From assembly GCA_964016885.1 (NCBI GenBank), contig OZ024740.1, positions 348,130,001 through 348,194,000 on the forward strand: DNA of 64,000 nt. Direction: 5' to 3'. The notes under the pieces are model-generated. The model had not been told where the DNA came from. It saw only the letters and a list, made by a program, of their open reading frames with translations, and did not search any database. Position numbers and translations under genes: made by a program. The stretch comes from Eledone cirrhosa (Eukaryota). Below are positions 182 through 56,231 of this stretch, piece by piece; the first letter of the stretch is position 1; the number at the start of each line of letters is the position of its first letter.

Positions 182-283
182 TATGAAGTAATTCCATCGG
201 AAAAGTCCAGGAAAAAAGAGTGCTCTATGTAAGCAACAGAGCTTAATTATTATTATTATGTAATAAACAACATAAGGCAATTA

Positions 284-343
284 TTCCATTTACCAGTGGT
301 TTCTTAAAAGCAAAAGGTTTTGCTTTCAATCCTCAGAATGAAA
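284..343 (-). ncRNA. Hammerhead HHR-A1 copy in the inverted arm
   Basis: Reverse complement of 10474-10533. Confidence 0.88.
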
Positions 344-550
344 AATCCTGGTTTGTTTATTGAATATGGATTCTAAAAACGAAAATGCAATCTATATGAA
401 AGTGAGGCTGGAAAAGGGAGAAGGAAAGGAAAAATAAAATAAAATAAAACTACACATGCAAACACACACAAAAAAACCCAAAAACATACTTACACACACA
501 CACATATATACACATATAATTTGCACGCATACACATATACACATACACAT

Positions 551-589
<39 letters not shown>

Positions 590-690
590 CACATACATAC
601 ACATAGATATATATAAAGAGCGTACACCTACACACACATACACATATATATACACACATATACACATACATATATTCATACATACACACG

Positions 691-726
<36 letters not shown>

Positions 727-748
727 TATATATACACATGTACATATC

Positions 749-790
<42 letters not shown>

Positions 791-811
791 CATATACACA
801 CATACACATAT

Positions 812-847
<36 letters not shown>

Positions 848-1243
848 GTGTGTACAAGCCTACACATACACACACACATATATATACACACACATATACA
901 TACATTCACGCAAACATACAACGTACATACATACACATACATGAATGCACTCCACTACATATTAACGCAAATAAATATAAGAAAAAAATATATAAATAAT
1001 ATTAACAAATATTTATTTGACAGCGATACATGCCCCAGCTAACAGGACAGACACGCGTGGTAAGTAATACACACATAAGCGCATATACATACGTTCGAAA
1101 TAGTAAACACATACACACACTCTCACACATAAATATACATATACAAATACATAAACACGTACATACACATACATACGCAAACACGTACACGTATACAATA
1201 TAAACACACACATGTATATGTAATTATATACACACACACACAC

Positions 1244-1288
<45 letters not shown>

Positions 1289-1747
1289 CAAAAATATAAA
1301 AATATAAACGCACACACACATATATAAATACGTAAACACACATATACATACATAGCTAAACAATTATACACATGCAAATACGTATATATCAAAAGAACGC
1401 ACAACCAAATACAAACACACACACATATATACACACACACACACCCACACACAAACCCACACATACATAAAAATAAATAAAAACACACGCAACATATACA
1501 TACATACACGTACATATACATATATACACACATACACATACATATATATATATACACGCATATATATACACAAATATATATATATATATATATATACACA
1601 CGTACACGTACACATACACACATGCATACACATACACACACACATATACATGTGTGTATGTGTAAAGCTCAGTATTAGATAAGACAAATGAACCTTACAT
1701 AAACGTATATATAGTAGTAAAGTAATAAAGCCATACAAGGCAATTAA

Positions 1748-1805
1748 TCCATTCACCAGAGGTTTCTTAAAAGCAAAAAAAGTTTCCTTCAATCTTCAGA
1801 ATGAA
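1748..1805 (-). ncRNA. Hammerhead variant HHR-A2 copy in the inverted arm
   Basis: Reverse complement of 8990-9047. Confidence 0.75.
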
Positions 1806-2193
1806 ATATACAAATATATACACACATACAGACACGCACACACACATATATATATATACATATATATATACATGTACATATATATATATATATATATATA
1901 CAGACATATATACACACATACACACACATACATATACACACATACATACACATATATATACATACACAAACATATACGTACACATATACATATATACACA
2001 CAAAAATACATACACATACACATAGGTATGTGAAGGGCAAAACAAAAAGAATATATGGGGTGGGGGGCCTAGAGGAGGTAAAAATATAAAGGGAGGTAAG
2101 GGAGAAAAAAATATATTTTTTAAAATACAAGAGTACAGAAGGTAGAAGCAGCAAAATAAAAGCCGTAGCAAAAGTAAAGAGCAGAGAAGGAGT

Positions 2194-3728
2194 TCAAGGC
2201 GGTTGATTTATCGTAGGAGTGTCAATCCAGTTACAGATCAGATGCGATTTCAGATGAGGACAGCATCTGAAGATCTCAGTCTTAGAGTTAAGGCAAGCGG
2301 AAGTGTCTCTCAAGTTTAGCAAAATCCTATACTTTTCTGTGGTACACAAAGAACAATTCTTTGTGCCCCTTTGGTACTCCCTCGAATGGTCTAATATAGA
2401 CCAATCAATAGAGTACGGGATATTACTATCCTTGAGATCCCATACCTTACTTGCGAGGGCCGTTGATGTTCGTTTATCTGAGTGTTTAAAAGAAGCGACA
2501 TGTGAGTAAAATCTGGTTTTAAACCTGTCCTGGGTCATACCGACATATCGCTCGCTTCTGGCTGGCTGGTTGTTGATAACTGGCGTTATTTTAGCCTCAT
2601 AAACGACAGATTTTGTTTTACATTTACCCTGCAATGGGCATTCATCCGGCTTCCTGCAACTGCATCCTGGATTTATCCTCGTACGGTTTGAACTGGTGAT
2701 TTTGGATTTCATGGATGGACAACAAGAGTAGCTGATCTTAACTACATTCCTATTAAAAATCTTATAATATCTATGAATAGGAGGAAAATGTTTGTCTAAT
2801 AGTTCAAGGAATTTCCTTCCTACATTAGTTTTGACATTTAGAGAGAAGGGGGGTGTGAACCAAATAATCTTCCTTTTCCTGTTATTATGGTTAGTTTTAG
2901 GGGGGGGGGAATAGGTAAATAAGAAATATTTTCTGTAAAACCGCTGTTCTTAAGGGCTTTATTATAATAAGGGGCGGCTTTATTAAAAATGTCTATAGAC
3001 GAAGATAAAGTAGAAATCCTACGGCTAATGTTAGGAATAAGATTTTTAAAAACTATAGGGGGATGGCAAGACTCTTTGTGTATATACCTAAGATTTTCAT
3101 TAGGTTTATGATAGGGTTTAAAAGAGGCAGTAAGTAGATCAAGATTAATATCAAGAAAGTTAGCATTAGTAAGGTTCGTATCTATAGTAATTTTAAGGTT
3201 AAGATTAGCAAAGGTACTAATTAAATCTTTACGGAATTTATCAAGATTATGGCCATTGGTGGTATGAGAAACTGCTAATCCGTCATCACGGTATAAACCG
3301 ATATTATGGGACGGAAATTTCTCTTTGAGTGTGTGGAGAAGGAATAATCCTACTAAGTCGCACACATCCGCACTGTCATAAGAACCCATTGCAACATCGA
3401 AAGAGTTTTCAGGGTTTGACTTTTTAACCCAAATCTTATCATTAGTAAAAAGTAAAGTTTTTCTGGCATGAAAGATAATGTCCTCTTCTAATTTGGAGAT
3501 ATTAATGAAGGGTCTTGCAAAATCTAAGGCTTTAGTTAATAAGGAAACGGTAATAGAAGGGTAAAAATCGACAATATCAAATTGCGTAAATCTACACTTA
3601 TTTTTACCTTGTATATTATTGAACCAAGAAATAACAGAGGAAGTATTTAGCCACTGTGAAAGGACAGTGTTAGTTCTAATTTGGATAATTATTTTTCTTA
3701 AGATTTTCTTACTAGCAAGGCCAACCTC
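2194..3728 (-). pseudogene. 5'-truncated inverted copy of the PLE-A ORF (RT + EN), frameshifted at a homopolymer
   Basis: Reverse complement of 7069-8601. G10 run at 2900-2909 versus C8 in the intact copy splits it into ORFs 2838-3389 and 2194-2712. Confidence 0.92.
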
Positions 3729-4703
3729 CTATCCATAGATATTATAAGATTTTTAATAGGAATGTAGTTAAGATCAGCTACTCTTGTTGTCCATCCATGA
3801 AATCCAAAATCACCAGTTCAAACCGTACGAGGATAAATCCAGGATGCAGTTGCAGGAAGCCGGATGAATGCCCATTGCAGGGTAAATGTAAAACAAAATC
3901 TGTCGTTTATGAGGCTAAAATAACGCCAGTTATCAACAACCAGCCAGCCAGAAGCGAGCGATATGTCGGTATGACCCAGGACAGGTTTAAAACCAGATTT
4001 TACTCACATGTCGCTTCTTTTAAACACTCAGATAAACGAACATCAACGGCCCTCGCAAGTAAGGTATGGGATCTCAAGGATAGTAATATCCCGTACTCTA
4101 TTGATTGGTCTATATTAGACCATTCGAGGGAGTACCAAAGGGGCACAAAGAATTGTTCTTTGTGTACCACAGAAAAGTATAGGATTTTGCTAAACTTGAG
4201 AGACACTTCCGCTTGCCTTAACTCTAAGACTGAGATCTTCAGATGCTGTCCTCATCTGAAATCGCATCTGATCTGTAACTGGATTGACACTCCTACGATA
4301 AATCAACCGCCTTGAACTCCTTCTCTGCTCTTTACTTTTGCTACGGCTTTTATTTTGCTGCTTCTACCTTCTGTACTCTTGTATTTTAAAAAATATATTT
4401 TTTTCTCCCTTACCTCCCTTTATATTTTTACCTCCTCTAGGCCCCCCACCCCATATATTCTTTTTGTTTTGCCCTTCACATACCTATGTGTATGTGTATG
4501 TATTTTTGTGTGTATATATGTATATGTGTACGTATATGTTTGTGTATGTATATATATGTGTATGTATGTGTGTATATGTATGTGTGTGTATGTGTGTATA
4601 TATGTCTGTATATATATATATATATATATATGTACATGTATATATATATGTATATATATATATGTGTGTGTGCGTGTCTGTATGTGTGTATATATTTGTA
4701 TAT

Positions 4704-4761
4704 TTCATTCTGAAGATTGAAGGAAACTTTTTTTGCTTTTAAGAAACCTCTGGTGAATGGA
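4704..4761 (+). ncRNA. Hammerhead variant HHR-A2 copy in the upstream pLTR
   Basis: Identical to 8990-9047. Confidence 0.75.
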
Positions 4762-4907
4762 TTAATTGCCTTGTATGGCTTTATTACTTTACTACTATAT
4801 ATACGTTTATGTAAGGTTCATTTGTCTTATCTAATACTGAGCTTTACACATACACACATGTATATGTGTGTGTGTATGTGTATGCATGTGTGTATGTGTA
4901 CGTGTAC

Positions 4908-4943
<36 letters not shown>

Positions 4944-5224
4944 GTATATATATGCGTGTATATATATATATGTATGTGTATGTGTGTATATATGTATATG
5001 TACGTGTATGTATGTATATGTTGCGTGTGTTTTTATTTATTTTTATGTATGTGTGGGTTTGTGTGTGGGTGTGTGTGTGTGTATATATGTGTGTGTGTTT
5101 GTATTTGGTTGTGCGTTCTTTTGATATATACGTATTTGCATGTGTATAATTGTTTAGCTATGTATGTATATGTGTGTTTACGTATTTATATATGTGTGTG
5201 TGCGTTTATATTTTTATATTTTTG

Positions 5225-5271
<47 letters not shown>

Positions 5272-5667
5272 GTGTGTGTGTGTGTATATAATAACATATA
5301 CATGTGTGTGTTTATATTGTATACGTGTACGTGTTTGCGTATGTATGTGTATGTACGTGTTTATGTATTTGTATATGTATATTTATGTGTGAGAGTGTGT
5401 GTATGTGTTTACTATTTCGAACGTATGTATATGCGCTTATGTGTGTATTACTTACCACGCGTGTCTGTCCTGTTAGCTGGGGCATGTATCGCTGTCAAAT
5501 ATTTGTTAATATTATTTATATATTTTTTTCTTATATTTATTTGCGTGTGTTAATATGTAGTGGAGTGCATTCATGTATGTGTATGTATGTACGTTGTATG
5601 TTTGTGTGAATGTATGTATATGTGTGTGTATATATATGTGTGTGTGTATGTGTAGGCTTGTACACAC

Positions 5668-5705
<38 letters not shown>

Positions 5706-5728
5706 ATATGTGTATATGTGTGTATATG

Positions 5729-5781
<53 letters not shown>

Positions 5782-5814
5782 GTATGGATATGTACATGTG
5801 TATATATATGTATA

Positions 5815-5846
<32 letters not shown>

Positions 5847-5935
5847 CGTGTGTATGTATGTGTATATATGTGTGTATATATATGTGTATGTGTGTGTAGG
5901 TGTACGCTCTTTTTTTATATATATATATGTGTATG

Positions 5936-5974
<39 letters not shown>

Positions 5975-6189
5975 GTATATGTATGTGTATGTGTATGTGT
6001 GTATGCGTGCAAATTATATGTGTATATATGTGTGTGTGTGTAAGTATGCTTTTGGGTTTTTTTGTGTGTGTTTGCATGTGTAGTTTTATTTTATTTTATT
6101 TTTCCTTTCCTTCTCCCTTTTCCAGCCTCACTTTCATATAGATTGCATTTTCGTTTTTAGAATCCATATTCAATAAACAAACCAGGATT

Positions 6190-6249
6190 TTTCATTCTGA
6201 GGATTGAAAGCAAAACCTTTTGCTTTTAAGAAACCACTGGTAAATGGAA
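6190..6249 (+). ncRNA. Hammerhead HHR-A1 copy in the upstream pLTR
   Basis: Identical to 10474-10533. Confidence 0.88.
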
Positions 6250-6468
6250 TAATTGCCTTATGTTGTTTATTACATAATAATAATAATTAAGCTCTGTTGC
6301 TTACATAGAGCACTCTTTTTTCCTGGACTTTTCCGATGGAATTACTTCATTTATACAGCTCCAACCGGGATTGATCGCAGCATATTCGATATTACATATA
6401 CGATTGGCACTTTCCAGCCCGATTAGTTGAGCACTCTACAGTTTTCAGGAATTTAACCAACATACACC

Positions 6469-8601
6469 ATGGACCTTTATGATTTGGATTATTCTATCTA
6501 AAACATACCCACTCCTTCCAACACAACATACACCAAAATCCTCATTGATAAAATCGAGCAAGTCGTTAAAAGAATGAGATGGAAGGCAATGGTTTACGAT
6601 GGACTATTCAGTGCTGATACTAAAGATAATTTTGACATTAAATCCCGTAAATATCCACCTAGAATTAAAGATATGGCCAACTTCGAATTAGACCTCGTTA
6701 ATCTAATTAGTGATATCAAATTTCGTAAGTACAATAATAATTTTCAAACTAAACTTTCTCACGATATCTCTAATTTTAGAAATTCTACAAACACTTTTGT
6801 TCTTTCTGATAAAACCAAAAACCTCTTTGAAGTTAATAGTAATTTGTATAACCAACTTTTAACTAATAGTATTACCAATAAATATCAATTAACTAATAAT
6901 AATAGCTACAATACTATCAATAAAGAAGCTAAAGAACTAGCTAGTTCTTTACAAATAGATAACCGGATTGAAAGCTTAGCTAAGCGTAAAGCATATATTA
7001 CCCTTAAAGACCATAAATTGGACTTTACTAATCGACCTAGTTGTAGACTGATTAACCCGGCTAAATCCGAGGTTGGCCTTGCTAGTAAGAAAATCTTAAG
7101 AAAAATAATTATCCAAATTAGAACTAACACTGTCCTTTCACAGTGGCTAAATACTTCCTCTGTTATTTCTTGGTTCAATAATATACAAGGTAAAAATAAG
7201 TGTAGATTTACGCAATTTGATATTGTCGATTTTTACCCTTCTATTACCGTTTCCTTATTAACTAAAGCCTTAGATTTTGCAAGACCCTTCATTAATATCT
7301 CCAAATTAGAAGAGGACATTATCTTTCATGCCAGAAAAACTTTACTTTTTACTAATGATAAGATTTGGGTTAAAAAGTCAAACCCTGAAAACTCTTTCGA
7401 TGTTGCAATGGGTTCTTATGACAGTGCGGATGTGTGCGACTTAGTAGGATTATTCCTTCTCCACACACTCAAAGAGAAATTTCCGTCCCATAATATCGGT
7501 TTATACCGTGATGACGGATTAGCAGTTTCTCATACCACCAATGGCCATAATCTTGATAAATTCCGTAAAGATTTAATTAGTACCTTTGCTAATCTTAACC
7601 TTAAAATTACTATAGATACGAACCTTACTAATGCTAACTTTCTTGATATTAATCTTGATCTACTTACTGCCTCTTTTAAACCCTATCATAAACCTAATGA
7701 AAATCTTAGGTATATACACAAAGAGTCTTGCCATCCCCCTATAGTTTTTAAAAATCTTATTCCTAACATTAGCCGTAGGATTTCTACTTTATCTTCGTCT
7801 ATAGACATTTTTAATAAAGCCGCCCCTTATTATAATAAAGCCCTTAAGAACAGCGGTTTTACAGAAAATATTTCTTATTTACCTATTCCCCCCCCTAAAA
7901 CTAACCATAATAACAGGAAAAGGAAGATTATTTGGTTCACACCCCCCTTCTCTCTAAATGTCAAAACTAATGTAGGAAGGAAATTCCTTGAACTATTAGA
8001 CAAACATTTTCCTCCTATTCATAGATATTATAAGATTTTTAATAGGAATGTAGTTAAGATCAGCTACTCTTGTTGTCCATCCATGAAATCCAAAATCACC
8101 AGTTCAAACCGTACGAGGATAAATCCAGGATGCAGTTGCAGGAAGCCGGATGAATGCCCATTGCAGGGTAAATGTAAAACAAAATCTGTCGTTTATGAGG
8201 CTAAAATAACGCCAGTTATCAACAACCAGCCAGCCAGAAGCGAGCGATATGTCGGTATGACCCAGGACAGGTTTAAAACCAGATTTTACTCACATGTCGC
8301 TTCTTTTAAACACTCAGATAAACGAACATCAACGGCCCTCGCAAGTAAGGTATGGGATCTCAAGGATAGTAATATCCCGTACTCTATTGATTGGTCTATA
8401 TTAGACCATTCGAGGGAGTACCAAAGGGGCACAAAGAATTGTTCTTTGTGTACCACAGAAAAGTATAGGATTTTGCTAAACTTGAGAGACACTTCCGCTT
8501 GCCTTAACTCTAAGACTGAGATCTTCAGATGCTGTCCTCATCTGAAATCGCATCTGATCTGTAACTGGATTGACACTCCTACGATAAATCAACCGCCTTG
8601 A
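6469..8601 (+). CDS. PLE polyprotein: reverse transcriptase + C-terminal GIY-YIG endonuclease; probable start ATG 6469, in-frame TAA at 6499; open 675 aa from 6574
   Basis: RT motifs FDIVDFYPSI, AMGSYDSA, YRDD, FLDINL. EN motif VVY...YVGMT...FKTR. CxCx5C linker (CSCRKPDEC), CxxC (CSLC), terminal KTEIFRCCPH. Upstream in-frame reading MDLYDLDYSI*NIPTPS...KRMRWKA. Confidence 0.93.
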
Positions 8602-8989
8602 ACTCCTTCTCTGCTCTTTACTTTTGCTACGGCTTTTATTTTGCTGCTTCTACCTTCTGTACTCTTGTATTTTAAAAAATATATTTTTTTCTCCCTTACC
8701 TCCCTTTATATTTTTACCTCCTCTAGGCCCCCCACCCCATATATTCTTTTTGTTTTGCCCTTCACATACCTATGTGTATGTGTATGTATTTTTGTGTGTA
8801 TATATGTATATGTGTACGTATATGTTTGTGTATGTATATATATGTGTATGTATGTGTGTATATGTATGTGTGTGTATGTGTGTATATATGTCTGTATATA
8901 TATATATATATATATATGTACATGTATATATATATGTATATATATATATGTGTGTGTGCGTGTCTGTATGTGTGTATATATTTGTATAT

Positions 8990-9047
8990 TTCATTCTGAA
9001 GATTGAAGGAAACTTTTTTTGCTTTTAAGAAACCTCTGGTGAATGGA
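8990..9047 (+). ncRNA. Type I hammerhead variant, proximal (HHR-A2), non-canonical GUG triplet
   Basis: TTCATT-CTGAAGA-TTGAAGG...CTTTTAA-GAA-ACC-TCT-GGT-G-AATGGA. Paralogous to HHR-A1, but position 17 is G. Confidence 0.75.
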
Positions 9048-9506
9048 TTAATTGCCTTGTATGGCTTTATTACTTTACTACTATATATACGTTTATGTAA
9101 GGTTCATTTGTCTTATCTAATACTGAGCTTTACACATACACACATGTATATGTGTGTGTGTATGTGTATGCATGTGTGTATGTGTACGTGTACGTGTGTA
9201 TATATATATATATATATATATATTTGTGTATATATGCGTGTATATATATATATGTATGTGTATGTGTGTATATATGTATATGTACGTGTATGTATGTATA
9301 TGTTGCGTGTGTTTTTATTTATTTTTATGTATGTGTGGGTTTGTGTGTGGGTGTGTGTGTGTGTATATATGTGTGTGTGTTTGTATTTGGTTGTGCGTTC
9401 TTTTGATATATACGTATTTGCATGTGTATAATTGTTTAGCTATGTATGTATATGTGTGTTTACGTATTTATATATGTGTGTGTGCGTTTATATTTTTATA
9501 TTTTTG

Positions 9507-9553
<47 letters not shown>

Positions 9554-9949
9554 GTGTGTGTGTGTGTATATAATTACATATACATGTGTGTGTTTATATT
9601 GTATACGTGTACGTGTTTGCGTATGTATGTGTATGTACGTGTTTATGTATTTGTATATGTATATTTATGTGTGAGAGTGTGTGTATGTGTTTACTATTTC
9701 GAACGTATGTATATGCGCTTATGTGTGTATTACTTACCACGCGTGTCTGTCCTGTTAGCTGGGGCATGTATCGCTGTCAAATATTTGTTAATATTATTTA
9801 TATATTTTTTTCTTATATTTATTTGCGTGTGTTAATATGTAGTGGAGTGCATTCATGTATGTGTATGTATGTACGTTGTATGTTTGTGTGAATGTATGTA
9901 TATGTGTGTGTATATATATGTGTGTGTGTATGTGTAGGCTTGTACACAC

Positions 9950-9987
<38 letters not shown>

Positions 9988-10010
9988 ATATGTGTATATG
10001 TGTGTATATG

Positions 10011-10065
<55 letters not shown>

Positions 10066-10098
10066 GTATGGATATGTACATGTGTATATATATGTATA

Positions 10099-10130
<32 letters not shown>

Positions 10131-10219
10131 CGTGTGTATGTATGTGTATATATGTGTGTATATATATGTGTATGTGTGTGTAGGTGTACGCTCTTTTTTT
10201 ATATATATATATGTGTATG

Positions 10220-10258
<39 letters not shown>

Positions 10259-10473
10259 GTATATGTATGTGTATGTGTATGTGTGTATGCGTGCAAATTA
10301 TATGTGTATATATGTGTGTGTGTGTAAGTATGCTTTTGGGTTTTTTTGTGTGTGTTTGCATGTGTAGTTTTATTTTATTTTATTTTTCCTTTCCTTCTCC
10401 CTTTTCCAGCCTCACTTTCATATAGATTGCATTTTCGTTTTTAGAATCCATATTCAATAAACAAACCAGGATT

Positions 10474-10533
10474 TTTCATTCTGAGGATTGAAAGCAAAAC
10501 CTTTTGCTTTTAAGAAACCACTGGTAAATGGAA
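10474..10533 (+). ncRNA. Type I hammerhead ribozyme, distal (HHR-A1), GUA cleavage predicted after 10526
   Basis: Stem I TTTCATT/AATGGAA; core CTGAGGA; stem II TTGAAAGCAAAA-CC-TTTTGCTTTTAA; GAA; near-palindromic stem III ACCA-C-TGGT; H17 = A. Confidence 0.88.
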
Positions 10534-10847
10534 TAATTGCCTTATGTTGTTTATTACATAATAATAATAATTAAGCTCTGTTGCTTACATAGAGCACTCT
10601 TTTTTCCTGGACTTTTCCGATGGAATTACTTCATTTACACATATATATATATATATGTATATATGTATATATATATATATATGTATATATATGTATATAT
10701 ATATATATATGTATATATATGTATATATATATATGTATATATATGTATATGTATATATATGTATATATATGTATATATATGTATATATATGTGTATATAT
10801 ATATATATGTATATATGTATATATATGTATATATATGTATATATATG

Positions 10848-10898
<51 letters not shown>

Positions 10899-10907
10899 GT
10901 ATATATA

Positions 10908-10972
<65 letters not shown>

Positions 10973-11322
10973 GTATATATATGTATATATATATATATAT
11001 ATGTATATATATGTATATATGTATATATATATATATGTATATATATGTATATATATATATATATGAATTAGTTTTGCGAGGTTTTTTATATGAAATCGTG
11101 TGTCGAAACAGATATTGTTATATTTGGGGAGGGTCATATTTGCGTAATATTGCCAGAATTAATAACAGAACACACTCACTGTTTGTTTGGTTTTCGCTTC
11201 TCGCTGTCTTTTATATATATATATCTGCGATCTAACTTACTCGGTCCTCAATGTTGCCATTGACTGACGGCGGTCAAAAATAATACAGATACAATATAGA
11301 CAAACACATATATATATAGTTT

Positions 11323-11362
11323 ACATAAATCTTTCGTTGCACATCTGCAACATCGTCAGTGG
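11323..11362 (-). ncRNA. Minimal type I hammerhead of PLE-B (weak stem I)
   Basis: CCA-CTGACGA-T-GTTGCA-GATG-TGCAAC-GAAA-GATT-TA-TGT. Aligns motif for motif with the better-paired HHR at 54349-54391. Confidence 0.65.
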
Positions 11363-11631
11363 TGTTATATTCATTGTTCCTCCTGTTGTGTTGTATGTCT
11401 ACGCCATTTTTTTTGTTCAGTCTGTCTATATATTTATTTATTTATTTGCTTGTTTGTTTATCTTATTTTATTTTGTCTTTTTTGCGCATGCGTTTGCGTG
11501 TGTGTATAGTGTTATGTGTGATGTGTGACTAGTGTGTATAGTGTTGTGTCTGCTGGGTGACTAGTGTGTGTTTATGTGCTTGTGTATGTATTTATTTATC
11601 TTATTTTATTTAATTTAATTTACTTATTTAT

Positions 11632-12015
11632 TTATACTTCTCTTAGGTCAGTGTTGTTTGTTTGGGTGTTGTTGTTGTTCCACTCATTCTTTCTGTTTAG
11701 CTTTGGTCTTCTAATTTCTATTTCACTGGCCTCTCTGATTTGCCTATCTGCTGGGTCATTCCTATGTTTAGATATTATTCTAATTTCTATGTTGTCTATG
11801 TTACCGTCATGATGTTGTCTAGCATGTTCGTATAGTACTGACCCGTTTTTTCGTCCTTTTAGTTCCCCCCAGTGTTGGTCTATCCTTTCACCTATGCTAC
11901 GAGCTGTCTCACCTATGTATGTTGTTGTCGTGTTTCTGCAAGTACCCTCTGTACATCTTATGCTATAGACTACGTTTCTAGTTTTACAGTTTATCCGGGG
12001 GTTCACCTTACATAT
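11632..12015 (-). pseudogene. GIY-YIG endonuclease domain fragment of PLE-B
   Basis: VVY/YIG motifs with conserved R, E and Cys/His residues. The first about 25 aa of the tracked ORF come from the inverted arm and are not real coding sequence. Confidence 0.88.
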
Positions 12016-12225
12016 GTAAACTATATATATATGTGTTTGTCTATATTGTATCTGTATTATTTTTGACCGCCGGTCAGTCAATGGCAACATTGAGGACCGA
12101 GTAAGTTAGATCGCAGATATATATATATAAAAGACAGCGAGAAGCGAAAACCAACCAAACAGTGAGTGTGTTCTGTTATTAATTCTGGCAATATTACGCA
12201 AATATGACCCTCCCCAAATATAACA

Positions 12226-18190
<5,965 letters not shown>

Positions 18191-18192
18191 AT

Positions 18193-45421: not shown

Positions 45422-45827
45422 TATAAAAGTAATATATATGAGTAATATATATGATGAAACAGATACCAACACATCTGTATTTATATTGCAAAAGAAAATT
45501 AGCCAGTATGAAGAATATTAATTATTTTACCACAGTTCGTCCACATCGATTTAAAATAATAAATCGACAAAAACTAGCTGCGAAACATGTTTGGATTTTA
45601 AGGTTTAAACTTATCTACGGAACAGGTTTGATTTTGAAATTTAAATATGTATAAACATCATAGCCATTTGGCAGCGCAGCTAGTTTTTGTCGATTTATTA
45701 TTTTAAATCGATGTGGACGAACTGTGGTAAAATAATTAATATTCTTCATACTGGCTAATTTTCTTTTGCAATATAAATACAGATGTGTTGGTATCTGTTT
45801 CATCATATATATTACTCATATATATTA

Positions 45828-54197: not shown

Positions 54198-56231
54198 TAT
54201 TGTTATGCTTTGGGAGGATCATGTTGCCAATAAGAATCACACGCACCAGTTGCTTTCACTCCAATTTATCATAAATTAAATTTATAAATTTAAGAATTTA
54301 TAAATTTCCGGTTGGCTGGTTCCCTAACCGGACGGTTATTCATATATTGTCAAAGTACTTTCGTCACACATTCTGTGACCTCTTCAGTGACTGGCGATTC
54401 TTTTCTTTGTTTTGTGCCTCTCCTTTGTTCTGTCCTACGCCATTTGTTTTTGTGTGTGTTGTGTGCTTAGTTTCCGCATGTGTTACATCCGGGTGTCTGT
54501 GTTTGTTTTTATTTGTTTATTTATTTGTTTATTTACATGTTACTGGTTTGTTGTTTGTTCTATGTGCGTGTGTGTTTTCATTTTGTCCTTAATTGTAAGT
54601 TGTGATGTTGCTATTCCATTCATGTTTCCTATTTAATTTTGGTTGGAGTTCATTTATGTTTATTGCCTCTGTGATTTGTCTAAATATAGCGTCTTTTCTG
54701 TGTGTAGATTCTATTTTTATTTCTATGTTCTCTAATTTGCCCTTATGTTCTATTTTACCATGTTGGTGGAGTATTGATGATTCTTTTTTATCTTGAAGTT
54801 CTCGCCAGTGTTCATTTAACCGTTCTCCTATACTACGAGCTGTCTCACCTATGTGCACTATATTCTTATCTTTACATTGTCCTTCAGTACATCTTATGCT
54901 ATATACTACATTTCTAGTTTTACAGTTAATATGGGGGCTTAGTTTACAGATTACGCATTTCTTATCTATACAGGGAGGTTTTTGAAAAGGGTATGTATTG
55001 CTAATAAGTGTTTTTATGGAGGTACCTGGTCTTTCTACTATCTTAATATTAAGTTTATGTTTATCTAGCGCCCTTCTAAATTTGTAAGCTAATTCACCTC
55101 TAGGGGTTGTATTGATGAACATTACAGTCTGGTATTTATTGCTATCATACCATGAGTTTATTCTATTAACCTTATTCCTAGTTCTTTCTATTCTATTCCA
55201 AAATTTGCTCCTATACAAGGGGCAGGTCCCATTTGTATCATTTTTTCCCATTTTTTCCCATTTGGTTCTGGCTTCTCTATATACTCTGATTTTATCTCTC
55301 TGATTGTAACCAGAGAACTGCATACGGTTGATGAAGTGTTGTATGTGTCTCTCTAGTTGTTTGGGGTTGCACATGCGGGACACGTTTCTCATCCCCCGTA
55401 CCACATCCGCAATCAGTATGTTGATTTTGGTGTGATCCGATCCGAACAGCTGAGTTTCGGTGGATCAGATATTTGGAAGTCATGGGTTTGGCATAATGGG
55501 AATGGAGGATTTGTTTTTTGTTATTAATTGTTTCTAACCAGAGGTCTGTGGTATTCGATGGTTGGGGTGTTTGCTTGGATAGTCTATAGTAACTCTAATA
55601 CTCTGGTGGATGGACTTAGCTATTTGCTGGATGCTTTCCATGGTGTTTTTCTCTAATTTCTGAATGTTCTCTAGTGGGGGTACATTTACTACGATGTTTA
55701 TATCATCAACGTAGCGGGAGTACATTATCAGGGTTAAGAGGTTGCTGTCTTCTAATTGTTCTTTAAGTTTAAGTTTAAGTTTATTGTCCCACCATACCAT
55801 GAATAGATTAGCTATGTCACCTGTAATGCTAACACCAATGGCTGCTCCCTCCTCTTGGGCATATTTTTTCCCATTAAATTTGAATTAATATTCCTTAAGG
55901 GTTAATTTTATACTGACCTCCACCGCATGTGCAATCATTTTCTTTAGTTCATCATGGTTTTCGGGCGTCCATATGGCTCTGGTCCACCCGTTCCATCTTT
56001 CTGTGTGGGTTTTCTTGGCCATTGAGGTAATGGTAGGTGGTCTGCCTCTTGCTGGTCTTGTAGGGCACAGGCTGCTCAGGTCATATGTATCTAGATAATC
56101 ATTACTATAGGTATGTTTAAGTAGGAGTCCCAGCTCACTGGTATCAATCCCACGGAATTCAACAGTGCTCTCACTGATCATTTCTACGCATTTCTCCACA
56201 GCAAAATCCACGTCAAATTCAGAAACGAAAT
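54197..56231 (-). mobile_element. Older 5'-truncated PLE related to family B (RT + GIY-YIG, frameshifted)
   Basis: RT motifs GAAIGVSITGDIANLFM and YVDD; SGY; EN CVIC...CKTRNVVYSIRC...HIGETARSIGER...H. The 3' terminus is homologous to 11112-11200. Clade not assigned. Confidence 0.9.
54349..54391 (-). ncRNA. Minimal type I hammerhead ribozyme
   Basis: GTCA-CTGAAGA-G-GTCACA-GAATG-TGTGAC-GAA-AGTACT-T-TGAC: 4-bp stem I, 6-bp stem II, palindromic stem III, CUU triplet. Confidence 0.82.

Follow-up and report, generated by a model that had tools for sequence, protein, structure and literature searches.

We analyzed a window of 64,000 nucleotides (64 kb) from Eledone cirrhosa (contig OZ024740.1), in which a two-armed insertion at 11063-12229 lies in microsatellite DNA. 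As claimed in a preliminary description of this DNA, a 217-bp inverted arm at 12013-12229 (plus strand) aligns with 11327-11112 (minus strand), over 217 columns with one substitution and one 1-nt gap. The features of the locus are:

10636-11062, no strand: left flank, (TA)n/(TATG)n microsatellite target
11063-11111, minus strand: 100% match to unit positions 1-49 in locus L075
11063-12016, minus strand: long arm, a 5'-truncated 3' end of the element (ORF end, 3' UTR/pLTR and tail), ~99% identical to genomic copies
11324-11361, minus strand: minimal type I hammerhead motif with the predicted cut between 11326 and 11325, from sequence, conservation and covariation
11632-12016, minus strand: coding end of a C-terminal GIY-YIG endonuclease (CxxC...VVYSI...YVGET...HH) with its stop codon, by translation; corresponds to the end of the 1217-aa open frame in locus L031
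12013-12016, no strand: 4-nt microhomology TATG/CATA common to both arms, within the palindrome TTACATATGTAA
12013-12229, plus strand: short inverted arm; its pLTR sequence begins at -2 to +3 relative to the predicted cut and runs to the tail-less 3' end
12230-18190, no strand: right flank, (TA)n/(TATG)n microsatellite array, read to 16500 and masked as simple repeat
18191-19359, no strand: tandem twin of the entire cassette with the same junction and flanks, 99.8% identity, two 1-nt indels and no substitutions

The junction palindrome reported earlier is present at 12008-12019. The shared sequence had been given as a TA of 2 nt; it is in fact longer, since the ORF of intact family copies contains ...ATCATATGTAAGG and these copies agree with the window through 12016. 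The overlap between the arms is therefore 4 nt long (12013-12016), which makes five breakpoints equally compatible, -2 to +3 relative to the cut. Contig loose ends start behind 12016, and no contig bridges the arm junction, which is uninformative in either direction. A target duplication is not readable in the (TA)n/(TATG)n left flank at 10636-11062. The twin at 18191-19359 is either a local duplication or an assembly repeat and, because its junction and flanks are identical, both cassettes were counted as one event.

The inserted sequence belongs to a Penelope-like element (PLE), intact copies of which (L031-L034) are arranged with a tandem period of ~4.12 kb, as partial tandems forming pLTRs. 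A single open frame of 1217 aa in L031 contains DKSG, MDVVSLYP, YVDD and YSI...YVGET motifs, corresponding to a reverse transcriptase (RT) plus a GIY-YIG domain at the C-terminal end, the motifs being named in part after the description in PMC8557442. A Pfam search with this frame and a PDB sequence search gave no match; its distant homologues bear RVT_1 and GIY-YIG Pfam marks, and the nearest named homologue is an RT-domain protein of Octopus vulgaris (69% identity). The linker before GIY-YIG contains CTNRKCIIC (CX2-5CxxC), compared with Neptune and Nematis by motif description only. A long Asn-rich insert was observed before the RT, at residues ~250-415 of the intact frame. The family is large and young, a single pLTR anchor giving 2206 exact matches. 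Overall, the RT and GIY-YIG frame, the pLTR tandems, the inverted 5'-truncated copy and a one-sided tail are all found, and the element is an EN+ PLE. Family positions were numbered along a real tandem copy in L031, which places the cut between 553 and 554 (+1 = 554) and the tail-less 3' end at 768; the tail ends at positions 811-830, recurring genome-wide, and is thus 43-62 nt long.

Other elements share the window. A second, unrelated PLE at 194-10628 (699-aa frame at 6502-8601) is present in nested copies, both inverted and tandem. A hammerhead-like motif in its pLTRs (e.g. 10481-10530) has a long helix II and may have a helix I of 7 bp; one head-to-head junction of this element, at 3725-3728, overlaps by 4 nt and lies far from the motif. 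Two fold-back elements with near-perfect arms and no match to the hammerhead core, at 45444-45813 (370 bp) and 40073-40192 (120 bp), are probably miniature DNA transposons. In the same microsatellite field, an AP-endonuclease/RT LINE (20862-21163 and 23550-26492) shows a 302-bp inverted copy of the LINE end 5 kb away.

The preliminary description had placed a hammerhead on the minus strand with its cut between 11326 and 11325, and this assignment is upheld by the sequence pattern, by a cut register that is constant across subfamilies and by covariation in helix II. From 11359 to 11319 the minus strand reads CTGACGA-T-GTTGCA-GATG-TGCAAC-GAAA-GATT-TA/TGTAAAC (the slash marks the cut), that is, a 2-bp helix I (CA/UG), CUGACGA, an extra U, a 6-bp helix II, GAAA and a helix III of A-U and G-U pairs. 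All the marks of a minimal type I hammerhead are present: the CUGANGA/GAAA/UH core, the extra base 9-10.1, G10.1-C11.1 and helices I-III. Among 16 copies drawn from several subfamilies and from a sister family at 54330-54415, 95% of cells were paired; helices II, III and proximal I were paired in 99-100% of cells, compared with 19-46% in slid controls. Two helix II pairs are altered on both sides, both in a single sister-family row, and helix III varies between G-C and G-U. Rfam scans gave no hammerhead match and only microsatellite-driven miRNA noise.

Judged from its sequence, the ribozyme of the young subfamily looks weak, with a 2-bp helix I and a helix III self-duplex of 0.0 kcal/mol versus -4.8 kcal/mol in the sister family. 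The cut lies inside an imperfect palindrome, TTTA-TG-TAAA. In an older subfamily (L101-L130, 2739 matches) helix III retains a G-C pair, and the distal part of helix I has 5 bp (AUAGU/ACUAU). The upstream control search that gave these matches, dominated by the older subfamily, was used only for the ribozyme comparison. Part of these features has been lost in the youngest subfamily, which would suit a ribozyme in decay within a still active element. The sister PLE family (54330-54415, minus strand; ORF remnant at 54589-56220; ~71% DNA identity) has a better formed hammerhead, with a 4-bp helix I, a fully palindromic helix III (AGUACU) and compensatory helix II changes. In a further large subfamily (pLTR of L047, L059 and L298) 9 nt of the cut-site sequence are duplicated, so that cleavage would be possible at two sites, and four junction events begin exactly after the first copy; this subfamily was considered as a decoy cut-site control and rejected because either copy could be cut. 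In isolation, an extended monomer helix III was unfavourable (+5.8 kcal/mol).

A spike of 5' breakpoints at TA/TGT had been predicted, and it would have answered from DNA alone whether cleavage occurs in the cell. We mapped 5' ends genome-wide with patterns that combined an anchor with a base ruling out intact copies; the matches are therefore copies ending within a short window. In each control window 30 loci were classified, and densities were corrected by filter pass rates estimated from base composition, giving intervals of roughly 1-9 per base. Ends of the young subfamily amounted to ~3.0 per base at 526-544 (9/30 classified, 151 matches), ~2.1 at 556-571 (9/30, 90 matches), ~4.1 at 586-604 (14/30, 100 matches) and ~4.6-5.1 at 615-633 (7-8/30, 310 matches). 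For the cut window, the full set of 54 matches from two complementary searches was examined; it gave 33 ends (the twin counted twice, two perfect palindromes once), a density of ~3.8 per base across 547-557 and ~4.7 across 550-557. Ends near the cut are thus no denser than in ribozyme-free windows, and the predicted spike is absent at this scale. The abundance of matches at 615-633 was considered as a large hotspot or a transcription start at an Inr-like TCAGTC; this was dropped because other subfamilies account for 21 of the 30 classified loci and just one true break lies at the Inr base.

At the scale of single bases, the 33 apparent starts were distributed as 548:1, 549:1, 550:2, 551:3, 552:11, 553:6, 554:3, 555:1, 556:4 and 557:1. 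There is a real local rise of 2-3-fold over adjacent bases at -2 to +1 (20/33 ends in 3/11 positions). It peaks at -2 (11 ends) and -1 (6), not at +1 (3); at -2 the TA is matched by the target microsatellite or by an inverted partner rich in T. Pile-ups over 3 bases also occur without a ribozyme at 525, 601 and 618 (~19, 33 and 25, versus ~25 at the cut; small samples, best of each window). Six rows (L150, L177, L181, L184, L186 and L190), which are indel or mutated copies with the real break outside the window, were left out of this comparison. Among junctions of the young subfamily with no overlap, 3/13 start at +1 (hand tally, P 0.13). For the (TA)4 subfamilies, 100 of 142 matches were used; their 59 v3/v4 ends run from -8 to +5, smoothly from -5 to -1, with 3/59 at +1 and 1/24 among no-overlap junctions; two references were allowed, so the real number of +1 ends may be about double. 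Ends taken without selection for the cut fell at 552-556 (-2 to +3) in 1/165 cases and at 440-479, near a poly-A run, in 14/165. Microhomology accounts for most of this base-scale rise, which bounds cut-derived ends at ~1% of copies; a class of symmetric junctions described below is left as a residue. A literature search by title and abstract start, with most subscription papers outside its coverage, found no PLE breakpoint map on a hammerhead cut.

The densest cluster of 5' ends lies elsewhere, at 444-472, often near-symmetric and at or just before the poly-A run (L057, L222, L424, L432, L435). It is ~90-100 nt upstream of the cut, and base pairing is possible between 446-458 and 574-586, around the ribozyme.

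We then turned to the way in which the arms are joined. The fetched loci contained 176 head-to-head junctions. Among 122 scorable pairs, pooled from all searches with imperfect de-duplication, a tail was present on exactly one arm in 116, on both arms in five and on neither in one. This count supports two-ended priming from two start sites, since it matches the two RT start sites defining the tail and the nicking of both target strands described for an anole element in PMC11167929. Asymmetric junctions (n=166) comprised 57 without a gap and 109 with fillers or nearby mismatches. An overlap of at least 2 nt was found in 30 of the 57 gapless junctions (versus 15% by chance) and one of 4 nt in 5/57, so that the overlap at 12013-12016 is typical: joining by microhomology is the family norm. 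At the cut, some junctions consist of snap-backs of 15-110 nt repeated in a tangle (L389, L380, L160, L251), which suggests repeated template switching during joining.

Taken together, these results favour, with a probability of about 0.68, a two-armed head-to-head insertion made by two priming events, the cDNAs being joined by microhomology rather than at the end of a ribozyme-cut RNA. A young PLE would insert into a TA microsatellite, with one priming event from each nicked target strand. Reverse transcription would start, at each end, at one of two fixed internal sites, yielding the tail-less or the tailed end; the cDNAs would halt at unrelated places and then anneal through short homology, preferably at T/TA-rich spots such as TTTATG at the predicted cut. 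The two arms of this locus were likely joined through the 4-base overlap CATA/TATG. The intact hammerhead inside the long arm indicates that the long-arm template was copied uncut. In PMC11167929, cleavage is dispensable in vitro: hammerhead mutants had no effect on insertion, and no RNA-seq ends lay at the cut.

A tentative alternative, unlikely but of some weight, is that most copies are microhomology joins while ~1% or less derive from hammerhead-cut RNA, best seen as symmetric junctions; both RNAs of a paired complex would be cut, and the arm at 12013 need not be cut-derived. A symmetric-junction pattern around the cut was found in 36 loci (reversed control 18), 24 of them element-derived and 12 not. 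Both arms starting at +1 fit in 13 loci, of which five are blunt (ACA/TGT, ATCA/TGAT), five have TA and three have other spacers. A search of the same design at the control site 501-515 gave none, an excess with a rough Poisson P of ~0.01-0.03 that is post hoc and relies on a single matched control site, and none was found at the neighbouring 2-base palindromic centres 549/550 and 556/557. The clearest cases are L086, with both arms exactly at +1 around a 13-nt filler, and L094, blunt at +1. Minimal hammerheads are built to work as dimers (PMC4209133), and the PLE protein is a predicted dimer that assists cleavage (PMC11167929). However, near-symmetric junctions are common anyway: eight occurred among unselected loci, scattered, three of them at 444-458, also with 2-nt overlaps or fillers, and 8 of 100 rows read by eye from one control-window search were a single fold-back at the palindrome 603-615. 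Moreover, in 2 of the 13 loci the second 'arm' is merely a 15-17-nt snap-back, several others are multi-switch tangles, and the cut itself sits within the imperfect palindrome. Three TA-centred symmetric junctions are nearest to subfamily v3, whose sequence is without that TA; the score margins are small (leave-one-out 23/26 and 15/19 for v3/v4), which makes this assignment a hint only.

The small symmetric excess may keep a family-level role for cleavage open, and cleavage in vivo as the cause of these junctions is improbable, at about the same level as the alternative just described. A little less probable, we would consider the conjecture that two hammerheads in one dimeric Penelope complex are cut together in the germline, that the cDNAs run off and are joined end to end, and that the 13 junctions are the fossil of this process. 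The claim that this DNA would show hammerhead cutting in vivo is thus not supported for the arm at 12013, a likely microhomology join, and retains a narrow residue in the 13 versus 0 symmetric junctions; evidence for PLE hammerhead cleavage in vivo is absent according to PMC4209133. In a large young family, the symmetric-junction class offers a cheap, sharper test of cleavage.

The original proposal, that the arm at 12013 was reverse-transcribed from the 3' cleavage product, with run-off at the 5'-OH end and joining to the long arm, has a real motif and cut register behind it and a breakpoint interval (-2 to +3) that contains +1, but it is very unlikely, as the 4-nt overlap fits normal family joins, a cDNA fixed at +1 would match the upstream TA (-2/-1) by chance only ~5% of the time, the young ribozyme looks weak and the long arm, made in the same event, was copied across an uncut motif. 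With an estimated 2-5% of -2 junctions cut-derived, the arm itself is probably not, at ~10% when untemplated bases are allowed for.

The structure can be compared with several known systems. In LINE-1 twin priming, a second priming event and a microhomology join produce an inversion whose two parts are non-overlapping pieces of one RNA. The Eledone insertions resemble it in the second priming and the microhomology join; by contrast, both arms hold the same 3' end, so that two RNAs or a tandem transcript are needed.

Compared with the metazoan PLE minimal hammerheads of PMC4209133, the Eledone motif shares the extra base before G10.1, G10.1-C11.1, a long helix II and a tiny near-palindromic helix III, and its helix I is short (2 bp) as in D. 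virilis; unlike those, the young-subfamily helix III is only pseudo-palindromic (G-U), and activity is predicted. Poseidon of Anolis carolinensis (PAc; PMC11167929) likewise has a pLTR hammerhead upstream of two fixed 3' end points, an AT-rich target and copies that pass through the uncut motif. In PAc the motif overlaps the first Met, whereas in Eledone it lies upstream, ~190 nt before the open frame's first Met; the Eledone linker is CX4CX2C, Neptune/Nematis-like by the description in PMC8557442, and PAc is known biochemically, the Eledone family from sequence.

A further likeness is to the canonical EN+ PLE unit, described in the Fig. 2 legend of PMC8557442 and, for Pen2a_Av, in PMC3846280 as a pLTR, an adjoining inverted 5'-truncated copy and a tail at one end. 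Shared with these descriptions are the head-to-head inverted arm, the palindrome or overlap at the junction, the tail on one arm, the partial tandems, the C-terminal GIY-YIG, the microsatellite target and an Asn-rich ORF insert, which resembles the N-rich inserts of Adineta Penelopes (PMC3846280) at a different position. The Eledone tail is longer (43-62 nt, with several end points). Overall, the family is a new member with known PLE architecture, to which the present analysis adds a counted one-tail rule (116/122) and junctions mapped against the hammerhead.
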